64,000 bases of DNA from an uncultured Bacilli bacterium (GTDB lineage Bacteria; Bacillota_I; Bacilli_A; RF39; UBA660). Location: assembly GCA_934140575.1 (NCBI GenBank), contig CAKPBJ010000001.1:196905-260904 (forward strand). Reading direction: 5' to 3'. The notes under the pieces are model-generated. The model searched no databases and was not told the origin of the DNA. It was given only the letters and a program-made list of their open reading frames with translations. The translations under genes were made by a program, and so were the position numbers. Of the stretch, positions 6,913 through 57,498 are shown piece by piece (within the stretch, counting starts at the first letter, position 1; every line of letters starts with the position of its first letter).

Positions 6913-8187
6913 TTAATTCTAATTCTCCTATAGCATTATTATCTAGAACATTATCTTTATACATTTCATTAACTACATCAGTATATTTATCATCTTTATC
7001 AAACCAATTATGAATCTTTCCGTGAATAAATGTATTATCTTATTAAACTTATCTTGCCAATATTCTAATGTGTCTTTTAAATCATTGATTTTTTATTTTA
7101 AGAAAGATATTTCTTCATCTTTATCTTTAATTAAATTATTTAATTTATTAATTCTTAAATTTAAAGACTCATTATTTTCCTCAAGAGTTTTAATTTTATC
7201 ATTTTTGTCTTTTATCTGATTATCTACGTTTGTTAAAGTAGTAGATAGAGTTTGTATTTTATCATATTCTTTATTAGTATTTTCAACATTATTGATAAAG
7301 TCGATAAATGATTCTTTATCTTCTTTTGATAATATATAATTAGCTTTATTTAATTTAGATACTTTTAATGTTTCAATTATATCTTTTATATCTCTAGAAT
7401 TTTGTTTTAATTCCAAAAATTTTTATTGGCATTTTCAAGTGTTTCAATATTTTTTTCTAATTGTTTTTTCATTTCGATATAGTTATCCATATTAGATACA
7501 TGACCATCTCTATTTCTACCTTTTTGTTTCTTCTTTAATGAAGTGTTTAGATTATATTCCTCATAAATTCTTCAATACATGGAGTTCTCATATTGCCTTG
7601 TAATTTTATTAAGATCCTTTAGTAAATACATCAGATTTATCAACTTGTTTAGACTACCATTTTTATTTTTTTCTTTAATAGGTACTCCAACTATATGAAG
7701 ATGTGAACTAGTTTCATCGTAATGGATTATGGCTGATGCTACTTTAAAGTCTGGAATTAATAATTCTAGATCATCAAATTGTTTGGTATAAATACTTAGT
7801 CATTTTTTTAAATTTTTCATCTTTAGTGTCCCAACATTCTTTATCTCCAAGTTCAATAATAATTTCACAAGCAAGGTCTTTCTTTTCGTTGTTAGATACA
7901 TTATCAAAATAATTGTCTAGCATACTAGAATGTTTACAATTGTATTCAAGTCTTGCTTCTTCAAATTCGTTTAAATATAATTGTTTAATATCTTCTAATG
8001 GAGAAGAAGTACCTCTAACTATTTCTATTAGTTCTTGTTCATTATCATCTTTTCTATAATTGTGTTTACCTACTTTAGATAATTGTCTAGCATTTTGAAT
8101 ATCATTGTTACTTAAAGAAGTATTACCACTTATATTTTTTCTATTTTTATCACTGCCAAGATGTAGTGAATAAGCAAATTCATCCAT
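6905..8187 (-). pseudogene. MobV-family (Pre/MobM-like) mobilisation relaxase, disrupted by several frameshifts and stops
   Basis: The N-terminal ORF 7774..8187 contains the HNYRK motif (MobV motif I, HN-R). The segment ...ASAIIHYDETSSHLHIVGVPI (motif III, H-DE--PH-H---VP) follows in another frame after a stop. This matches pMV158 MobM, which reads CDEWIITSDKDFF...ASVHLDESTPHMHMGVVPF. Coiled-coil C-terminal pieces (7093..7416 and 6911..7090) lie in other frames. Confidence 0.7.
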
Positions 8188-8293
8188 ATATAATCACCAC
8201 CCTTTCTTTTTTTGGATGGATGATTTATAAAAAAAATCATTCTTTCGAATGATTCATATATGTAAGTCCGGATTTTCCGAACAGATTCCTCAA

Positions 8294-8368
8294 TGGAGCG
8301 AACGAGGGGAATCGAACCCCCATCACAGCCTTGGCAAGGCCGTATTCTAACCATTGAACCACGTTCGC
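8294..8368 (-). tRNA. tRNA-Gly (anticodon GCC)
   Basis: The reverse complement reads gcgaacgtggttcaatggttagaatacggccttgccaaggctgtgatgggggttcgattcccctcgttcgctcca. It has the anticodon loop cttGCCaa, a T-loop GGTTCGATTCC and an encoded CCA. Confidence 0.85.
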
Positions 8369-8376
8369 ATATAAAT

Positions 8377-8450
8377 TGGAGGGGCCTACCGGATTTGAAC
8401 CGGTGATCAGGGTGTTGCAGACCCACGCCTTACCACTTGGCTAAAGCCCC
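8377..8450 (-). tRNA. tRNA-Cys (anticodon GCA)
   Basis: The reverse complement reads ggggctttagccaagtggtaaggcgtgggtctgcaacaccctgatcaccggttcaaatccggtaggcccctcca. It has the anticodon loop ctGCAac, the U73 discriminator typical of Cys, and a CCA end. Confidence 0.85.
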
Positions 8451-8529
8451 GTTGCAATTAGTATTATATCATATACACTTTTTATATTGCAACTAATTTA
8501 TATATTTTATGTAAAAAAATTAGTGAAGA

Positions 8530-9744
8530 TTACCCTTTCTTCCAATAATTATATATATTTTCATAATTATATTTTAATTCATTACTTTCAACTATTTTCA
8601 TTAAGCCTTCTGAGTCACTATATTTATAGAGTATTCCATCTGATATTAAAATAATGTTTCCATCTATTACTTGCCAGATATCTATATTAGATAATTCAAA
8701 TAAATATTTACTATTATACTTTTTTCCTTTTATTTGACTATAAAATTTATTATCTTTTTTATAATAATAGTAATTTATATCTTCTTTTATATCTAGAGAT
8801 TCTATTTTATTACTCTCTACTTTATAATTTGTAAAATATTGATTATCTTGAAAGAATGATGTTTTATCTAAAATTATTTCCTTGTTATTTCTATATAAAT
8901 AGTATTCATTATTTATACTTATCTCCTCTACTTTTTCTTTTTTTACATTTATTTTATATTGTTTTTTTTCTTTAGTATCTGTTACATAGATATCATTATT
9001 ATATACACCATTAATATATGATGTTTTTGATATTTTTTCTTGTGGCTTGAATTCTTTTAATTTATATTTGTCTAAATCATAATAATATATTTTTTCTATT
9101 CCATTAACTGACCTATTATCAAATATTACATAATACTTATTTACTATTGTTGCCATTACATTGTCGTAGATATCATTTGAAAGAATTGATTTATATTGAT
9201 AATTATTGTTTTTTACTATGTAAATTCCTCTATAATCCCAGATTGTATATACTTCATCATCATTTATATTATCTTTGTAGATACTTAGCTTTTTATATTT
9301 AGTTGTTTTATTTGTTTTATTTATAGTTGGAAAATTATATTTTTTTGCTTTTTTTAATATATTTTTATATTCTTTATTATTTTGTAGAGAGTAATTTGAT
9401 ACTTGTTCTTTTTTATTTAAACAGTAAATATTATTTTCTATTTTTTTATTTTTGTAAATTGGAATTATACAATTAATATCTTTACTTTTATATGTCTTTA
9501 TGTCTTTTATTATTTGTTTTTGTTTGTTTATATTTTTATTTAATATGTATGTATATACTTTATCTTTATTAGTTATTTTTATAGTATATTGATGTTTTTT
9601 ATTAATTATTTTAAAGTTTTCCGTTATTTTATATTTGAATATTTTATATTCTACTTTATGATTTGTCTTTATAATGTGTTTTATAAACATTATTATTAGT
9701 ATAAATAGAATTATTACTATTAGTTGTTTAACTCTTTTTTTCAT
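8530..9744 (-). CDS. hypothetical membrane-anchored Lys/Tyr/Asn-rich protein
   Basis: The ORF is 404 aa with an N-terminal TM segment (IVIILFILIIMFI). The rest of the sequence is low-complexity. Confidence 0.45.
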   Translation of the reverse strand: MKKRVKQLIVIILFILIIMFIKHIIKTNHKVEYKIFKYKITENFKIINKKHQYTIKITNKDKVYTYILNKNINKQKQIIKDIKTYKSKDINCIIPIYKNKKIENNIYCLNKKEQVSNYSLQNNKEYKNILKKAKKYNFPTINKTNKTTKYKKLSIYKDNINDDEVYTIWDYRGIYIVKNNNYQYKSILSNDIYDNVMATIVNKYYVIFDNRSVNGIEKIYYYDLDKYKLKEFKPQEKISKTSYINGVYNNDIYVTDTKEKKQYKINVKKEKVEEISINNEYYLYRNNKEIILDKTSFFQDNQYFTNYKVESNKIESLDIKEDINYYYYKKDNKFYSQIKGKKYNSKYLFELSNIDIWQVIDGNIILISDGILYKYSDSEGLMKIVESNELKYNYENIYNYWKKG

Positions 9745-9787
9745 TTTACCACCTTGTATAAATTATAAAGCAAAAAAAGACTAATTT

Positions 9788-10246
9788 CTAGTCTTCTTCT
9801 TCTCTCTTTAGCCCATATTTTTTCTTTTCTTCAATCATGTAAGTTGAAATTTCATTTTCTATTTCTGTTAGGGCTGGTTTACTAATATTGGATAATGTTA
9901 CAAATTCTTTTATTGTATCTATATATACCTTTCCCCAAATAATACCACTTGATACTTTAATATCATTAAACATATCTGGTGTTATTGAGTTGAAAAAATA
10001 TCCGAATACTACTCTTTTACTTGCAACTAGTAGACGTCTATTTGTTAAAACAACGGCTGCTGTTGTTATTATGTTGAATGGGTTATCATTTTTTTGAGCT
10101 GCAAATGCATAGATTACTTTTTCATCTGTTGCTAGATGTTTTCCTATTACTTGTGCATGACCTCGTAACCTCCAAGCAATTGTTCCTGGATGTCTATTTT
10201 TAAATTCCAATAATTTTTTATATACAATACTTGTATTCATATCCAT
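9788..10246 (-). CDS. hypothetical protein (possible bacterial PH-like fold)
   Basis: The ORF is 152 aa. There is no catalytic motif and the PH-like assignment is weak. Confidence 0.4.
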   Translation of the reverse strand: MDMNTSIVYKKLLEFKNRHPGTIAWRLRGHAQVIGKHLATDEKVIYAFAAQKNDNPFNIITTAAVVLTNRRLLVASKRVVFGYFFNSITPDMFNDIKVSSGIIWGKVYIDTIKEFVTLSNISKPALTEIENEISTYMIEEKKKYGLKREEED

Positions 10247-50965: not shown

Positions 50966-51672
50966 TTAATGTAGAAGTGAATCTATATATTCATTTAATT
51001 CATTAAACTCTTCTTTTTTTAGTTCATTTAGTTTAGGATGATGTTCTTTTATTATGGCACCATTAAATGTTTTTAACATTTCATAGTCATTATCATTATC
51101 CCCTATTACATATAATTTATTATATTCAAGATTTTCTATATTTAATAATCTTTTTAGGGCATGTTCTTTATTCACACTTTTTTCAATTATATTTACGTGA
51201 GTTCTACTTGCGTATATATGAACATTTACTTTTTCTTGTATTAATTTAACTATTCTTTCTTTTTCTTCATCATCTGTACAATTTACTACTATTTTTACAC
51301 AGTCATTCATATTTGTTGTTTTATTATAACCATCATCTAAATAGTAATCAGCATTTATACTATCTAAAATATCTGTTGCTTTTTCAATAGTATTTTTATC
51401 TAAGTTAATCGTATCTAAGCAATAATCAACACTATTAAATATTTTTGCTCCATCATCACAAACTAAGTATGTATATAAAATGTTATATTTTTTTAAATAC
51501 TTTTTTAAATCTGAATAGTTTCTGCCGGTTATTATGCAGAAGATATTTCCGTTTGAAATAAATTCATTAATTTTAAAAGCATTTCTTTTATTTTTTTCTT
51601 CATCTTCTAAAAAATAGATTGTATTATCAAAGTCACTTGCTAGTATTTTTATAAATATCGCCTGCCTTTCAT
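50966..51672 (-). pseudogene. HAD-superfamily (Cof-type) hydrolase with no canonical in-frame start; likely frameshifted at the 5' end
   Basis: The reading frame encodes ILASDFDNTIYFL (motif I DxDxT) ... GDNDNDYEML (motif IV). No ATG, GTG or TTG occurs in frame upstream of motif I. The only nearby ATG (51670-51672) is in another frame and stops after 7 codons. Confidence 0.5.
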
Positions 51673-52017
51673 CTAATATTAGTATACCTTATAAGTGACT
51701 GATGTGTAAAATATCTTTTTTGCTTACTTTTATTATTTTATATATTTAGTATAATTATTTAATAAGACTGAGTATAGAATTGATATGAAAACAATTGATT
51801 CATTGTACAAAAGTATTTATGATGAAGTAAGAAAAGTTCATAATTACGAAGTTTTTGAATTAAGTTATTATGAAATTAGTGCAAATAAAGAATTTATAAC
51901 ATGGGTAAATGAGAAAGTTAGACAAGTAACAAGTATATAAAACAAGTAGATATAAATAATATTTATTTGTTTTTTTTATTGATTAGTATTATAATATGCG
52001 AAAAAAGGAGGGGTTTT

Positions 52018-54300
52018 GTGCGTGAATTTAAGGAAATTTTTGAAGAATTAGGTTATACGTTCCCTAGTGCAGATGTTTTAGAAGACGTTTATACCTTTTA
52101 TAGATATTATAATAATGAAGCAAATAAAGGTGTATCAGCAATTTTATTAGAAGGAGATCCAGGTTGTGGTAAAACTTTTTTATCTGAGGTATTTCAACAA
52201 TATTTAGGAAAAGATACAGAATATATTTATACACAATGTGTTGAAGAGACTAATAGTGATAAGTTAATTGCTACTTACAACGTTCCTGCTATTGTTAAAG
52301 GAGACTCTGATAAGGCTATTGCTGAAGGTATTCTTACTCATGCAATAATGCTTGCTAATGCTGGTAAAAAAGTAGTACTAACAGTTGATGAGTTAGATAA
52401 AGCAAGAGAACAACTTGATTCATACTTCTTAGATTTTTTACAAAATGGTAAGATAGAAACAGCAGATAATAAAATTTTATCTTTAACTGAGGAAGGAAGA
52501 AAAAATCTTTATGCAATATTTGCTAAGAATAATGAAAGAGATTTACTAGATGCCTTACTTAGAAGATGTTCTGTAATTAAATTACCACCTATGCCACCAG
52601 TTTTAGCTTATAAAACTTTACTTAGAAAATTTGAAAATAATAAGCATGATCCAAAATTTTTAAAATTTATTTGTAAAGTATATGAAGCAATATATAATGA
52701 ACAAATGAATAGTAATGAAGAATTACTTAATAGACTACCTGCTCTACAAGAATTAATTTCAGCAATAAGTAGTGATTATGAATTATATTTAGATGGAATA
52801 AGTAGTACTAGAAGAATTAAAAGTTTAATTAGAAAACTTGGAAAAGATGATAATAGTCGTGAAATAATTACAGATATTCTTACTAAAAAGTTTAAATATC
52901 AAAATAAAGAAAGTAATTATACTAATGAGACACTTAACTTTGATATCGATGATTCAAATGACTATATGAATACAAGAGATAAAGAAAGTTTAGTTGATCA
53001 GTATATAGAAAAGAAAGATAATGGTGAATATATCTTTGAAGAAGATGAAATGGAAGACCCGATGAAAGATATTGCTAATATTCTTGATAATATGAAAGAT
53101 GATCAATCTCTTGTATTTATAGATAAAGCAAATAAAGAAAAAATTGTGGAACTTGGAACTATTACTCATGATAATCCACAGGCACTTGACTGTTTATTTA
53201 ATCAAGTAAAATTTAAAGGAAATCCTAATAGTAGATTTGGTTTTCTTGACTTTGATGGAGATAATTTTGTAGGTTTAATGAAATATAAAAACACATTAAT
53301 ATTAGTTGCAAATAAAGAATATGTTTCTCCAAAACTTCTTATGAGAAGTCTTTCTTCTATTATAACAATAATTTGTGATGCAAATAATAATCCTGATTTT
53401 AATCATTATTATTTTTCTGAATCAAGTGCTGATGACTTCAAACTCACTGGAATAAATGCTAAAATCTTATCAAATTCACCAAAGATGGTTTTAAATAAAA
53501 TGAAAAATGTTAATGGAGTTATGACTTATAATGCGAATAATTTAAAAATTACTCATGATGATTCACTTAATATTAATTATTTTAGATATTTACAAAGATA
53601 TAGAGCAGAACCTATTTTTGATGTTGTAAAGAAATTATGTGAATTTAATCCTGAACTTGCAATTCCAGCATCATTTATAAATGCGAAAAAGTTTGAGCCT
53701 AATAGTTTTAATGGCCTAAGAGGTAGCGATTACTATGAGCGTCAAAAAGATAGAGCTCAAAGATATGAAGAAAAAGGATGGAAAGTTACATTTGATGAAA
53801 TGACTCCAATGCACTTAACTATCGGAAAAATGGATACACTAAGAGGAAAACATTATTGGGAAGATGAACATAGATATTATGAAGTTGAAGATGACTATGT
53901 TTTTGAATATGATGAAACTATAGATGAAGAAAATAAAACAGTTCATTTATATCCTAAGTATAAATTAAATGGAGAGTATGTATTATATACTCAAGAAAAA
54001 GACTTTATGGAAAATGAATCTATTAAACAATTAGATCCATTTCAAAAAGAGATTGCTATGATGGCTAAAGACATATTTGGTAACTTTATCCCTGTATTTT
54101 CAAGCGAAAGAAACCCTGACTACTTTTCAAAACTTACTATGTCACATACGGGTAGAATTGTTGATAACAAACAAGATAGAAGAAGAATTCCTGGTATATC
54201 ACAAGATATTACTGAAGAGAATGACTTTACAAAATATTATAATTCATTAGCAGAACCATGTTCTTTAATTACACCTGAAAAAGTATTTAGAAAGAAATAA
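52018..54300 (+). CDS. MoxR-like AAA+ ATPase with a C-terminal extension of about 550 aa of unknown function
   Basis: Walker A reads AILLEGDPGCGKTF and Walker B reads VVLTVDELDKA, followed by ...LDFLQNGKI as in the MoxR/RavA family. The RBS AAGGAGGGG lies 4 nt before the GTG at 52018. There is a 3-nt gap to the next gene. Confidence 0.65.
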   Translation: MREFKEIFEELGYTFPSADVLEDVYTFYRYYNNEANKGVSAILLEGDPGCGKTFLSEVFQQYLGKDTEYIYTQCVEETNSDKLIATYNVPAIVKGDSDKAIAEGILTHAIMLANAGKKVVLTVDELDKAREQLDSYFLDFLQNGKIETADNKILSLTEEGRKNLYAIFAKNNERDLLDALLRRCSVIKLPPMPPVLAYKTLLRKFENNKHDPKFLKFICKVYEAIYNEQMNSNEELLNRLPALQELISAISSDYELYLDGISSTRRIKSLIRKLGKDDNSREIITDILTKKFKYQNKESNYTNETLNFDIDDSNDYMNTRDKESLVDQYIEKKDNGEYIFEEDEMEDPMKDIANILDNMKDDQSLVFIDKANKEKIVELGTITHDNPQALDCLFNQVKFKGNPNSRFGFLDFDGDNFVGLMKYKNTLILVANKEYVSPKLLMRSLSSIITIICDANNNPDFNHYYFSESSADDFKLTGINAKILSNSPKMVLNKMKNVNGVMTYNANNLKITHDDSLNINYFRYLQRYRAEPIFDVVKKLCEFNPELAIPASFINAKKFEPNSFNGLRGSDYYERQKDRAQRYEEKGWKVTFDEMTPMHLTIGKMDTLRGKHYWEDEHRYYEVEDDYVFEYDETIDEENKTVHLYPKYKLNGEYVLYTQEKDFMENESIKQLDPFQKEIAMMAKDIFGNFIPVFSSERNPDYFSKLTMSHTGRIVDNKQDRRRIPGISQDITEENDFTKYYNSLAEPCSLITPEKVFRKK

Positions 54301-54303
54301 TTT

Positions 54304-56169
54304 ATGGATAAAATACCTAGTTTAGATAGTTTATTAGATTATGGTGATGAATATAAATATCCGGATTTAATAACTAGCGATTATTTTGTAATCGATAAAA
54401 AAAGACAAGAAAAGAATAGTCAAAATAGTAATGATAATTCGCCTACTGACAATAATCAAAAAGAAAAAGACAATTCAAATGATTTTAGTAATGAAACTCA
54501 ACAAAATCAAAATAATTCAAATACATCTGATGTAGATGGTTCAGAAAGTAATGACTCTAATTCTGATACAGATAGTAAAAGTAATTCGGATAGTTCTTCT
54601 AATGATGAGACTTCACAAGATAGTTCTAGTTCTTCTGAGACTGATAGTTCAGAAAATAATGATTCTAATTCTGATACAGATAGTAAAAGTAGTTCTGGAA
54701 ATTCTTCTAATGATGATTCTTCACAAAAGAGTTCTAGTTCTTCTAACTCTAATGGTTCAGAAAATAATGATTCTATTTCTGATAAAGATAGTAAAAGTAG
54801 TTCTGGAAGTACTTCTAATGATGAGGTTTCGCAAGAAAGTTCTAGTTCTTCTAACTCTAATGGTTCAGAAAATAATGATTCTATTTCTGATGGAGATAGT
54901 AAAAGTAGTTCTGGAAGTACTTCTAATGATGAGGTTTCGCAAGAGAGTTCTAGTTCTTCTGATACTGATAATTCAGAAAATAATGATTCTATTTCTGATA
55001 CAGATAGTAAAAGTAGTTCTGGAAGTTCTTCTAATGATGATTCTTCACAAGAGAGTTCTAGTTCTTCTAACTCTAATGGTTCAGAAAATAATGTTTCTAT
55101 TTCTGATGGAGATAGTAAAAATAGTTCTGGAAGTTCTTCTAATGATGATTCTTCACAAGAGAGTTCTAGTTCTTCTGAGTCTGATCGTTCAGAAAATAAT
55201 GATTCTTCACATGAGAGTTCTAGTTCTTCTGTGGCTGATAATTCAGAAAATAATGATTCTAACGAAGAAGAAAAAGATTTACTTGATGAAAATAAAGAAG
55301 AGAAAGATTCTGATAAAGAAAAACAAGATAATAAAGATAATGATTTGCACAAAAATAACGATAGTGATGACGAAAATAATTTTGATGATTTAATGAACAA
55401 TTATGATGAAGATAATGATACAAAAAGAAATCGTAATACTACGAATAGTGATTCTTCTGGCAGCCCTAGTGATAAACTAAGTAGTATTCATAGTTCTAAA
55501 GTATATATGACTTTAAAGAAATTAGTTTCACTTAGTTATGAAAGATATACTAAAGGCACGTATAAATATAATAAAAAAGACATAGTTAAGCATTATATTA
55601 CTAACCAAAAATTTAGAATTATGGATGATATGGTAAGTCCTACTTTTAAACCTGATGTTTATGTATTTGACTTATCACCTTCTAATGACGATTCTCTTGA
55701 ATTATATGTTAATACAATTAGTAGTGTTGCCTCTAAAGGTTCTATTATATATTTAACTTTTAATGAAAGAATACTTAGAAAACTTACTATTAAGAAAAAT
55801 AGTTCTTCAGGTATTGATGTTGAGAAAGTTGCTAAATCAAATACTACAAGATATCAAAATTTTGATTGTGAAGTATTTGATGAATTTCGTTCTTTATATG
55901 ATGAATTGAAAGATATAAAAAATAAAAAAATATATGTGTTTTCAGATTTTGATGTTAGTGAAGAGATGTGTTCCCTATCACAAGAAAATGATAGTATTGT
56001 TTGGTTTTCAACAGAAAATAGTGCTCATTATGGAGGAATGTTTGATTTTTATAGACCTTACCCTACTACATATAAAGGATATTATGTTGAAACACAAGGA
56101 ATTGATGATATAGAAAAATATGTTTTAGAAAAAAATAAAAGTAAATATAAAACGAAAGGAAAAAGATAA
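54304..56169 (+). CDS. vWA (MIDAS) domain protein with a long Ser/Asp/Asn-rich tandem-repeat linker
   Basis: The C-terminal roughly 230 aa has DVYVFDLSPSNDDS (the DxSxS MIDAS motif), ...T..., and IYVFSDFDV (the vvvhTDG-like strand). The central roughly 260 aa consists of about six 39-aa repeats (GSENNDSISDGDSKSSSGSTSNDEVSQESSSSSNSN). Confidence 0.6.
   Translation: MDKIPSLDSLLDYGDEYKYPDLITSDYFVIDKKRQEKNSQNSNDNSPTDNNQKEKDNSNDFSNETQQNQNNSNTSDVDGSESNDSNSDTDSKSNSDSSSNDETSQDSSSSSETDSSENNDSNSDTDSKSSSGNSSNDDSSQKSSSSSNSNGSENNDSISDKDSKSSSGSTSNDEVSQESSSSSNSNGSENNDSISDGDSKSSSGSTSNDEVSQESSSSSDTDNSENNDSISDTDSKSSSGSSSNDDSSQESSSSSNSNGSENNVSISDGDSKNSSGSSSNDDSSQESSSSSESDRSENNDSSHESSSSSVADNSENNDSNEEEKDLLDENKEEKDSDKEKQDNKDNDLHKNNDSDDENNFDDLMNNYDEDNDTKRNRNTTNSDSSGSPSDKLSSIHSSKVYMTLKKLVSLSYERYTKGTYKYNKKDIVKHYITNQKFRIMDDMVSPTFKPDVYVFDLSPSNDDSLELYVNTISSVASKGSIIYLTFNERILRKLTIKKNSSSGIDVEKVAKSNTTRYQNFDCEVFDEFRSLYDELKDIKNKKIYVFSDFDVSEEMCSLSQENDSIVWFSTENSAHYGGMFDFYRPYPTTYKGYYVETQGIDDIEKYVLEKNKSKYKTKGKR
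54540..55250 (+). repeat. about six in-frame 117-nt tandem repeats encoding a polyanionic Ser-rich disordered linker
   Basis: The unit ggttcagaaaataatgattctatttctgatggagatagtaaaagtagttctggaagtacttctaatgatgaggtttcgcaagaaagttctagttcttctaactctaat recurs with point differences. Both antisense frames give spurious ORFs. Confidence 0.8.
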
Positions 56170-57176
56170 TGGAAAATATTAAATTTAATAAATTATTAGA
56201 TGATAAATATTCTCTTATGAGTGATATTGCGAAGAAATATAATTATAATGATGAGTTACTTTCAATGCTTACTTTTATTTATGTTGCTTTTTACATGGAT
56301 TTTGGAAAAGATGTTGACTTTCCTTTATATGATTTGTTTAACAGAGTAAAAATAATATATGAAGAAGGAAATGTTTCAGAAATTTCTAATAGACATGGAT
56401 ATGGTAAAATGGAAGCTGGAAGTGCAGCAGTAACTATTTTTATACCTAATTTTAGAGTATTTAATAATCCTGAAGAAAAACAAAATTCACAAGTTATTTT
56501 GCTTGGTACACATGTAGGAGAATATCTTGCAACACCTGTTTTAAAACTGGAAATGTTAGCTCATGAAATAAGACATGCACTTATGGGATATTACAATACT
56601 AATAAATTAATAGATAGTAATACTTATTATATGAGAAGTGGTTTACAAGAAATATTTTATAAAAGAAATGATTTTGATAATAGAATTACTAGTATGGTTA
56701 AGGCTCATACTTTAGGGGAAGTCACTAATACTTATATAACTGAAATTCTTATTAATAGAATTATGTCATTTAAAAACTATGATATTAGGAATAATAATTT
56801 AAAAAGATATTTAAAAATGCTTAATACAAAACAACTAGATGGTAGATATAGAGCTATTGGATACAATAATGAAGTAAGATTATTATATCCTCTACTTTTA
56901 AATACTATGTTTATAGACTTAGTTAATAAGTGTGAGTTTGATGGAGATGTAGATTTAGTTAGAAAATTTATTGAAACTAATACAAATATTTGTAGTTATG
57001 ATGAATTTTGTAAAATACTTGATGAAGTATATAATGGAAATATTTCTTTTGCAAAAGATGTTCAAGAAAAGAATATGGATAAAATAAATAGACATGTTGA
57101 AAATATTAACAAAATTAAAAGTGTTGTTATGAGTGTAAAAGAAAGCCTTGATTGTCCAGTACTTAAAAAAGTATAA
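56169..57176 (+). CDS. HExxH zinc-metallopeptidase-like protein, third gene of the MoxR-vWA operon
   Basis: The motif LEMLAHEIRHALMGYY is present. Its start overlaps the upstream stop (gaTAATGg). Confidence 0.5.
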   Translation: MENIKFNKLLDDKYSLMSDIAKKYNYNDELLSMLTFIYVAFYMDFGKDVDFPLYDLFNRVKIIYEEGNVSEISNRHGYGKMEAGSAAVTIFIPNFRVFNNPEEKQNSQVILLGTHVGEYLATPVLKLEMLAHEIRHALMGYYNTNKLIDSNTYYMRSGLQEIFYKRNDFDNRITSMVKAHTLGEVTNTYITEILINRIMSFKNYDIRNNNLKRYLKMLNTKQLDGRYRAIGYNNEVRLLYPLLLNTMFIDLVNKCEFDGDVDLVRKFIETNTNICSYDEFCKILDEVYNGNISFAKDVQEKNMDKINRHVENINKIKSVVMSVKESLDCPVLKKV

Positions 57177-57498
57177 TATCTAATTAGTGGGGATCTTGTG
57201 TTTAAAACAGATATTAATTTAAATTTATATAAAACTTTTTATAATATTGCGAAATATGGACTAGTACAGTAAAGATAAAAGTTCCAACTCTTGGAATTAA
57301 AACTTATTCTCCTCCAGGTAGAGAAGTTGGTAGTTCTTGTGGTGAATTTACTAAGCATTATTATCATGAAGAGATTGAAACATAGGAACAAAGAAAAGAA
57401 TTTGAAAAATTTGAGAAAGAACATCTTATTAAAGAATAATAATAAAAAAGAGAACTAAGTGAAGTTATATTTTAGTATGCTTCATCCTTGTTCTCTTT

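Follow-up and report, generated by a model that had tools for sequence, protein, structure and literature searches.

A conserved three-gene operon in uncultured gut Bacilli

We analysed a stretch of 64,000 nucleotides (nt) from contig CAKPBJ010000001.1 of an uncultured Bacilli bacterium, here called the window, for three adjoining + strand genes that we refer to as the triad: gene 1, which encodes an AAA+ ATPase with a long C-terminal extension; gene 2, which encodes a protein with a polyanionic linker and a predicted domain of the von Willebrand factor A (vWA) type; and gene 3, which encodes a protein predicted to have the zincin fold (Table 1). A preliminary description made from the sequence alone had proposed a three-gene operon and quoted its principal motifs, and all three open reading frames (ORFs) and all of these motifs are found in the window. 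It had begun gene 1 at position 51967, where the listed ORF (51967–54300) opens with TTG and would encode 777 amino acids (aa). This TTG is part of the −35 hexamer TTGTTT and not the start of the gene, which lies at a GTG (52018) behind the ribosome-binding site GGAGGGG and yields the 760 aa that had also been given. Genes 1 and 2 are separated by 3 nt, and the ATG of gene 3 overlaps the TAA stop codon of gene 2 by one base.

The −35/−10 layout ahead of gene 1 recurs 20–35 nt upstream of the gene 1 ribosome-binding site in five other loci (L003, L005, L008, L010 and L011; L numbers denote loci and P numbers homologous proteins or their clusters), and in a sixth, L001, it stands upstream of an orphan ATPase homologue, P0105. 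Because of the promoter before gene 1 and the equivalent pair in these six loci, we regard the triad as a transcription unit of its own. This fits its setting, since the triad is the main + strand block of the window (1–64000), in which nearly all ORFs of at least 150 aa lie on the − strand, and it coincides with the only stretch of positive GC skew in its region, the sign of the skew switching exactly across the triad. The switch in strand and skew would fit a unit that had been acquired separately or had been inverted. Rfam identified no RNA element within or around the operon.

Each of the three proteins is represented by 45–115 homologue clusters at 49–99% identity, always in the same order. 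Genes 1, 2 and 3 abut or overlap in every contig long enough to show their order, with one exception (L024, see below). When loci were scanned independently with gene 3 as the seed, gene 2 was directly upstream in 18 of 18, and gene 1 was upstream wherever the contig reached, L024 again being the exception. The order is kept across lineages down to 50–56% protein identity; the flanks differ between lineages, and the promoter layout travels with gene 1. Flanking genes are TypA, M48 and sortase in the window; ZnuA/Zip, transposases and a Schlafen/AlbA_2-HATPase protein in L003; SpoIIIAH/RhuM in L005; a methyltransferase and a radical SAM protein in L008; an aldo-keto reductase and an Fe-hydrogenase in L010; and Fic and FTHFS-MutL in L011/L012 (Fic in L011). 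The synteny on which the preliminary description depended therefore holds in many loci with differing flanks. All sources of the triad are gut metagenomes or metagenome-assembled genomes (MAGs) named 'uncultured Bacilli bacterium'. A contig scan with a single-protein query returned one locus only, in an uncultured Bacilli MAG, and no relatives of the triad were found in IMG/VR, the phage GenBank set or BFVD. The triad is a real, conserved operon of uncultured gut Bacilli.

Table 1 Features of the triad, in window coordinates.
Feature	Position	Strand	Basis or detail
Putative operon promoter, sigma-A-type	51967–51995	+	Consensus match; −35 TTGTTT 51967–51972, 17-nt spacer, −10 TATAAT 51990–51995
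Gene 1 ribosome-binding site GGAGGGG	52007–52013	+	Four bases before GTG 52018
Gene 1, 760-aa AAA+ ATPase with C-terminal extension	52018–54300	+	ORF and homologue clusters
AAA+ module, core and lid (about residues 1–300)	52018–52920	+	Pfam AAA_5, MoxR-annotated relatives
Walker A GDPGCGKT (residues 46–53)	52153–52176	+	
Walker B LTVDELDKA (residues 121–129)	52378–52404	+	
Sensor-1/arginine-finger block KNNERDLLDALLRRC	52525–52569	+	
C-terminal module (about residues 345–760)	53050–54297	+	About 415 aa, no family-library match
Hypervariable patch (residues 551–650)	53668–53967	+	Entropy and substitution analysis
Gene 2, 621-aa vWA cofactor (putative)	54304–56169	+	ORF and homologues
Conserved N-terminal peptide M..IPxLDxLLxYGxEYxYPDLIxSDYF	54304–54408	+	About 30 aa, kept across lineages
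Polyanionic low-complexity linker	54409–55473	+	Tandem Repeats Finder and composition
108-bp × 6.2 tandem repeat in linker	54535–55206	+	Tandem Repeats Finder
Acidic/aromatic conserved motif DENNFDDLMNNYDED	55369–55413	+	Within linker
Basic helical segment and predicted vWA domain	55474–56166	+	DLSPS 55669–55683, SDFD 55942–55953
Gene 3, 335-aa predicted zincin-fold protein	56169–57176	+	ORF; HEIRH 56562–56576
Candidate third zinc ligand E184 (or E161)	56718–56720	+	Invariance and position in model

A putative MoxR-like ATPase with a large C-terminal module

The N-terminal part of gene 1 matches Pfam AAA_5 (PF07728) over residues 42–184 with 46.9 bits (cut-off 22, E 3.6e-12). This match spans positions 2–139 of the 139 in the model and is the best among all AAA profiles; AAA_3 gave no match in the Pfam scan. 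Gene 1 has 105 homologue clusters, nearly all full length, at 56–97% identity, and AAA_5 is listed for all but 3 of them. Walker A and Walker B are kept across 21 homologues, save the divergent orphan P0105, and residues G51/K52/T53, D124/E125, N171 and R182/R183 are invariant or nearly so in the homologue alignment. R265/R266 is a candidate sensor 2, assigned by position only.

Searches of annotated plasmids with tblastn returned 28 matches, all limited to the AAA+ module, most of which are named 'MoxR family ATPase' by the annotation pipeline PGAP; the nearest annotated relatives share only 25–35% identity over this module. One of them is CoxD, which lies within a CO-dehydrogenase cluster and adjoins a 'VWA domain-containing protein' (CoxE). 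The best match (35% identity) is an ATPase on a Clostridium argentinense plasmid, the gene for which overlaps the next gene, whose 330-aa product contains FFLDTSGS; the DTSGS of this partner aligns with the DLSPS of gene 2 without statistical support (E 0.12). The Walker motifs of gene 1 and CoxD coincide, as does the sensor-1/arginine-finger block (K-N-N-E-R-D-L-L-D-A-L-L-R-R-C in gene 1, S-N-G-T-R-D-L-S-D-A-L-R-R-R-C in CoxD). N171, R174, A179 and R183 are invariant in an alignment of gene 1 with CoxD and two other MoxR-type ATPases, which bears out an intact sensor 1 and the arginine finger looked for in a MoxR-type core, and the block that gene 1 has in common with its MoxR-family relatives reads N-x-x-R-x-L-x-x-A-L-x-R-R-C. 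Given these annotated relatives, the coinciding Walker motifs and the shared block, we accept gene 1 as MoxR-like and CoxD-related on its sequence, as had been suggested from its motifs, at the level of the family rather than of one of its seven described subfamilies (MRP, APE0892, RavA, CGN, APE2220, PA2707 and YehL). The patterns QC.EE...D.L and LQNGKIET are suggestive of a helix-2 insert and a pre-sensor-1 beta-hairpin. A clamp-loader-like identity was also considered, as NCBIfam and PHROGs gave generic AAA or clamp-loader matches only; it was set aside in view of the higher AAA_5 score, the MoxR/CoxD annotation of the relatives and the vWA protein as partner.

The C-terminal module of gene 1 yielded chance-level, sub-threshold matches in Pfam and nothing meaningful in NCBIfam, PADLOC, PHROGs or PDB. 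A profile of the module searched against 1.84 billion representative proteins found 24 matches only, most of them fragments of the same family. Five stand-alone homologues of 299–379 aa (P0273, P0274, P0280, P0283 and P0285) align along the module, P0280 without its variable middle region, and Pfam places no domain in any of the five. In exact-match look-ups, stand-alone homologues in other gut bacteria (P0288 and P0274, at L014–L016) had no ATPase, vWA or zincin neighbour, and context scans for such homologues in JGI metagenomes and IMG/VR found nothing. Since these homologues occur without ATPase, vWA or zincin neighbours, the module is an independent evolutionary unit that was fused to a MoxR core. 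Profile-profile tests for hidden homology to gene 2 or gene 3 were negative, and the conserved residues of the module are not obviously catalytic. RavA carries a LARA domain at a comparable position, and by this analogy we infer that the module may be a non-enzymatic domain for binding a partner or target. The family profile also gave a weak match at residues 330–429 (window 53005–53304) to the S4-domain region of eukaryotic uS4 (chain 7qca_SJ0, E 0.009), which is probably due to chance.

Within this module lies a hypervariable patch, the entropy maximum across 94 gene 1 homologues. The patch makes up 13% of the length of gene 1, and it holds 50–73% of the differences to four relatives of 92–94% identity and 33% of those to a 97%-identical relative. 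Against L007, a 96%-identical locus, the synonymous substitution rate (dS) in the patch is 0.67 and the non-synonymous rate (dN) 0.23 (dN/dS 0.34), vs. a dS of 0.12–0.27 and a dN/dS of 0.05–0.17 outside it. Because both dS and dN are raised, the pattern points to exchange of a divergent allelic segment rather than to simple positive selection.

A predicted vWA domain on a polyanionic tether

Gene 2 has a conserved order of parts, in which the N-terminal peptide is followed by a linker of 200–350 aa, an acidic/aromatic motif (DENDFDDLMNNYDE), a basic helical segment and a C-terminal domain of about 170 aa. It is the composition of the linker (24–39% D+E) that is conserved, not its sequence. It carries a net charge of −65 in the window, between −61 and −96 in four further triad lineages, and −19 in L018, a two-gene locus with a shorter linker. 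Assemblies often break in the gene 2 repeat, as in L007, the contig of which ends there, and the exact gene 2 protein of the window was not found in the protein collection.

The C-terminal domain is predicted, with moderate confidence, to adopt the alpha/beta fold of vWA domains, in agreement with its earlier assignment. In the model, the first strand leads into the DxSxS motif (DLSPS, residues 456–460) and the fourth parallel strand into an invariant Asp, the arrangement of metal ion-dependent adhesion sites (MIDAS); SDFD occupies residues 547–550. Of the intact MIDAS motif that the preliminary description had reported, the DxSxS residues D, S and S and the distal Asp stand, being invariant in 24 homologues, and the Thr is not assignable. 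Top structural matches include the MIDAS domain of midasin, which is partnered with AAA_5, and the vWA domain of NorD, with BchD also among them; a profile search of gene 2 against PDB chains gave nothing usable. In all homologues the vWA domain is the C-terminus of the protein, with no domain after it.

Gene 3 as a predicted zincin of an undescribed family

The HEIRH motif of gene 3 occupies residues 132–136, and its two His and its Glu are invariant in 37 homologues. The structure is predicted with high confidence to be a zincin fold, with HExxH on helix 123–141, followed by a four-stranded meander and then a long helix (180–203), the start of which is marked by the invariant D183-E184. Two invariant residues, E161 and E184, are candidates for the third zinc ligand, and 160–177 residues of the model align with gluzincin peptidases. 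No match was found to a peptidase family profile, a PHROG or a viral structure (BFVD), and Pfam scans of every gene 2 and gene 3 family member at E up to 10 returned noise only. Searches of PDB chains with the three proteins and their profiles gave nothing usable either, their only returns being an HExxH stretch of FtsH (E 0.64) and the uS4 match noted above. Gene 3 is the zinc-motif protein overlapping the gene 2 stop that had first been described and, going by its model, a zincin of an undescribed family. Since its catalytic Glu is intact, metallopeptidase activity is plausible.

Some loci carry further genes after the triad. One in L008 (14010–15998) encodes a 346-aa HEINH protein with weak likeness to gene 3 (hhalign E 0.002, probability 13%). 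Extra genes in the same stretch of L008 and in L003 (15136–16059), encoding 295 and 307 aa, have in common the motif G-x-G-x-C-R-H-T, which may mark a cysteine peptidase or transglutaminase-like site. The extra genes of both loci had no Pfam match.

An accessory and dispensable module

Compared with L023, to which its flanks are 97% identical, L024 lacks 3.4 kb, a loss that takes in the whole of gene 1 together with the 5′ half of gene 2. The deletion junction lies in A-rich microhomology and creates an in-frame fusion of a small ORF upstream with the ~295 C-terminal residues of gene 2. Fusion proteins of this type form three clusters (P0224, P0225 and P0227, with 31, 9 and 51 member sequences, 91 in total), which indicates that the deletion allele is common in nature rather than a product of faulty assembly. 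Frameshifts are present in the gene 1 of L007 (a 7-nt insertion), L037 and L018 (at Walker A). In L018 (6478–9909), a divergent ATPase, called as 520 aa in 23 member sequences, is accompanied by a gene 2 homologue and no gene 3, on an element that carries Mob_Pre, RepA_N, TnpV, a KAP NTPase and a Schlafen/AlbA_2-HATPase gene. The orphan P0105 (L001/L002, 428–2683) has 751 aa, 40% identity to gene 1, an insertion in the AAA+ core, a Walker A of GKRKSGKT and D-N in place of D-E in Walker B; it sits between a DivIVA-like gene and deoC, without a vWA or zincin partner.

The L024-type allele and the L018 dyad show that the three parts are not strictly interdependent, and the deletion allele, the frameshifts and the orphan ATPase together indicate a system that is repeatedly eroded, the ATPase first. 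The triad module is accessory and dispensable.

Comparison with known MoxR-vWA systems

MoxR proteins act with vWA cofactors (PMC3893208). Like CoxD-CoxE, NorQ-NorD, CbbQ-CbbO and RavA-ViaA, the triad has an AAA_5-type ATPase gene directly followed by a gene ending in a vWA/MIDAS domain. Gene 1 resembles CoxD in its sensor-1/arginine-finger block and RavA in carrying an extra C-terminal domain, but it is about twice as long as CoxD, NorQ, CbbQ or RavA and its 415-aa module has no known relative. In contrast to CoxE, NorD, CbbO and ViaA, gene 2 has a 30-aa N-terminal peptide and a polyanionic tether and no folded N-terminal domain; in contrast to all four pairs, the triad includes a zincin as an integral third gene and no client enzyme is encoded nearby.

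A MoxR protein with a metallopeptidase-vWA pair has been described in jumbo phages (PMC7824862). The triad likewise joins a MoxR-like ATPase, a vWA domain and an HExxH metallopeptidase; however, the phage peptidase is fused N-terminally to the vWA domain, whereas in the triad the peptidase has a downstream gene of its own and belongs to a different, unclassified family of zincins, and the triad is without relatives in the phage and viral collections named above. The phage pair is presumably of the Pfam DUF2201_N/DUF2201 type, and neither DUF2201 nor DUF2201_N had a profile match in the gene 2 and gene 3 families at E up to 10.

The defining features of the ternary conflict systems, to which the preliminary description had likened the triad, are a third component of the VMAP, iSTAND, FtsH or beta-propeller kind and effector domains fused to the vWA domain at its C-terminal side (Kaur et al. 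2020, PMC7159879). The triad is similar in having a MoxR-vWA core with an obligatory third protein, a MoxR core that looks CoxD-derived and one component with a variable region. It differs in that its third protein is a free-standing zincin without a Pfam match, which is none of the four defining kinds, in that no effector domain follows its vWA domain and there are no EADs or other adaptor domains, and in its hosts, which are uncultured low-GC gut Bacilli rather than multicellular actinobacteria, cyanobacteria or similar. VMAP, bpMoxR and STAND profiles gave nothing above threshold on the three triad proteins, and PADLOC, proposed earlier as a check for defence genes, returned only PDC-M37B (3e-6), on the P-loop region of gene 1. 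There are also no phage or viral relatives in the collections searched, and the neighbours in the window are not defence genes. The triad falls outside the four published ternary conflict classes.

In eukaryotes, midasin/Rea1 carries six AAA modules in tandem on a single giant polypeptide, whereas the triad encodes its motor and its tethered MIDAS domain separately and adds a peptidase. The layout of AAA_5 motor, D/E-rich tether and MIDAS domain parallels midasin only by analogy and does not amount to membership. Overall, the triad brings together the three activities of the phage pair, newly arranged and in new protein families.

Proposed mechanism and alternative explanations

We propose that the triad is an ATP-driven MoxR-vWA remodelling machine coupled to its own zinc metallopeptidase in a self-contained, separately promoted operon, and we give this an even chance of being correct. 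The proposal draws on the AAA_5 match and MoxR/CoxD relatives of gene 1, the vWA fold with DxSxS of gene 2 and the zincin model of gene 3 with its HExxH and two invariant Glu residues. It draws further on the tight coupling of the genes, their conserved order within differing flanks behind a conserved promoter, the conserved linker composition, the dispensability of the module and the MoxR-vWA precedent. Gene 1, as a CoxD/MoxR-like ATPase, would presumably be hexameric, and its C-terminal module, with the fast-changing surface patch, would bind a partner or target. By analogy with NorQ-NorD, CbbQ-CbbO and midasin, gene 2 would use its MIDAS face both to bind a client, at an acidic residue, and to dock on the ATPase ring, and the polyanionic tether would join the vWA domain to the N-terminal peptide, which probably engages a second partner. 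The three proteins would then form a physical complex in which control runs from the ATPase to the peptidase: the gene 3 zincin would be the output of the system, and its activation or its access to a substrate would be gated by the ATP-dependent remodelling carried out by genes 1 and 2.

Several observations weigh against this proposal. The helix-2 insert and pre-sensor-1 hairpin of gene 1 are candidate features put forward from sequence patterns and its hexameric state is presumed, the AAA+ core also scores with generic AAA and clamp-loader profiles (Pfam, NCBIfam and PHROGs), and searches of the PDB chains gave no significant match between the sequence of gene 1 and a solved MoxR structure. 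For gene 2, the confidence of the vWA model is only moderate, scans of 24 family members at E up to 10 gave no match to a vWA family of Pfam, and the MIDAS Thr is not identifiable, as the expected loop is without a conserved Thr and T95 of the modelled fragment belongs to a beta-strand. In the deletion allele the vWA domain, in its in-frame fusion, and the zincin persist without the ATPase, and the L018 lineage has the ATPase and the vWA protein without the zincin.

The preliminary description had put the triad forward as a sensor/effector conflict system, a label that we carry as a hypothesis. As an anti-phage or conflict system, the gene 1 patch would sense an invader protein, ATP hydrolysis would signal through the vWA protein, and the zincin would be freed as a toxic or invader-directed effector. 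We consider this unlikely, although several observations speak for it. The patch, with dN and dS both raised, resembles a recombining specificity determinant; the acidic linker is prone to changes in repeat number; gene 1 has been inactivated or deleted repeatedly, with presence/absence polymorphism within a species; and the genomic location differs between lineages, with transposases and Schlafen/AlbA_2-HATPase (L003), KAP NTPase/Mob/RepA_N/TnpV (L018), Fic (L011) and RhuM (L005) nearby. There is also a conceptual precedent (PMC7159879). However, the dN/dS of the patch is 0.34 and not above 1, the three proteins are otherwise strongly conserved, and the neighbours in the window, L008, L010 and L012 are ordinary metabolic or envelope genes. 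Moreover, PADLOC gives nothing beyond the weak P-loop match, the third component is not VMAP, iSTAND, FtsH or a beta-propeller, and the vWA domain carries no fused effector. Extended further, this idea would make the triad a fifth MoxR-vWA ternary conflict class, not described before and confined to low-GC gut Bacilli, with the gene 1 module and its recombining patch as sensor, a midasin-like acidic tether to position the MIDAS domain and a free-standing, ATP-gated zincin of a new family as effector, which we likewise consider unlikely.

We rate as improbable the idea that the zincin is not the output but the client, with the MoxR-vWA pair serving as a chaperone for maturation or metal insertion, by which gene 3 is loaded or activated, in the manner of CoxD-CoxE, NorQ-NorD or the chelatases. 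The closest annotated relatives of the ATPase do include CoxD beside CoxE in a CO-dehydrogenase cluster, NorD vWA and BchD are among the structural matches of gene 2, and a metalloprotein, gene 3, is encoded immediately downstream. Yet the deletion allele retains gene 3 without the ATPase, and the L018 lineage retains the ATPase and vWA protein without gene 3. A chaperone of this kind would leave the large C-terminal module with its patch, and the acidic tether, without a role, and simple mononuclear zincins are not known to depend on an ATPase for the loading of their metal.

It is highly improbable that gene 3 is not a peptidase but another zincin-fold hydrolase (e.g., a YbeY-like nuclease) or an inactive scaffold, in which case the system would act on a non-protein target. 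Gene 3 has a peptidase-type HExxH with an invariant catalytic Glu and further invariant Glu residues downstream, it is with gluzincin peptidases that its model aligns, and the YbeY site has the form HxxxHxxxxxH; the uS4 match of gene 1 is at chance level. Finally, frameshifts and deletions in several loci could suggest that the three genes are mere neighbours in a decaying lineage-specific island, with no joint function, but there is next to no chance of this given their strict order and overlapping or abutting arrangement down to 50–56% identity amid unrelated flanks, and the strong purifying selection on the three proteins outside the patch (dN/dS 0.05–0.17).

Genomic context of the window

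Upstream of the promoter, a 51-aa ORF (MKTIDSLYKS..., 51785–51940, + strand) was considered and rejected as a component of the system, because it is conserved only in near-identical strains (90% in L007, and in no other lineage). Next to it lies a HAD gene (50966–51670, − strand), which the preliminary description had called decayed. Its single frame of about 240 codons is uninterrupted and includes the catalytic motif DFDNT, but no ATG, GTG or TTG occurs before the internal Met that is codon 1 of a 114-aa ORF. With the frame unbroken and a canonical start missing, this points to start-codon loss or a non-canonical start and not to a frameshift.

After gene 3, the window contains a remnant of a LysR-type regulator, its first ~21 codons (57198–57260). 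L023 has an intact LysR-type gene (303 aa) and a radical-SAM-like gene (345 aa, CNLGCKMC) between gene 3 and the sortase region (8027–10040), and relative to L023 the window strain has lost ~1.8 kb after gene 3. Farther downstream in the window are a sortase, an S26 signal peptidase and repeat-bearing surface proteins, in keeping with the sortase/matrix flank noted at the outset.

Implications

MoxR-vWA pairs are widespread, but little is understood about them, and known clients are limited to a handful of pairs. The triad adds three families without a curated model, namely the 415-aa appendage of the ATPase, the divergent vWA protein on its polyanionic tether and the zincin family, which is new, and it would offer a compact three-gene system for the logic of an AAA+ motor, then a MIDAS adaptor, then a protease. 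Natural alleles without the ATPase provide a ready-made comparison. If the hypervariable patch is not a specificity determinant, the triad would be another dedicated chaperone-protease module, of local interest; if it is, NTP-dependent conflict systems would extend to common Bacillota of the human gut.

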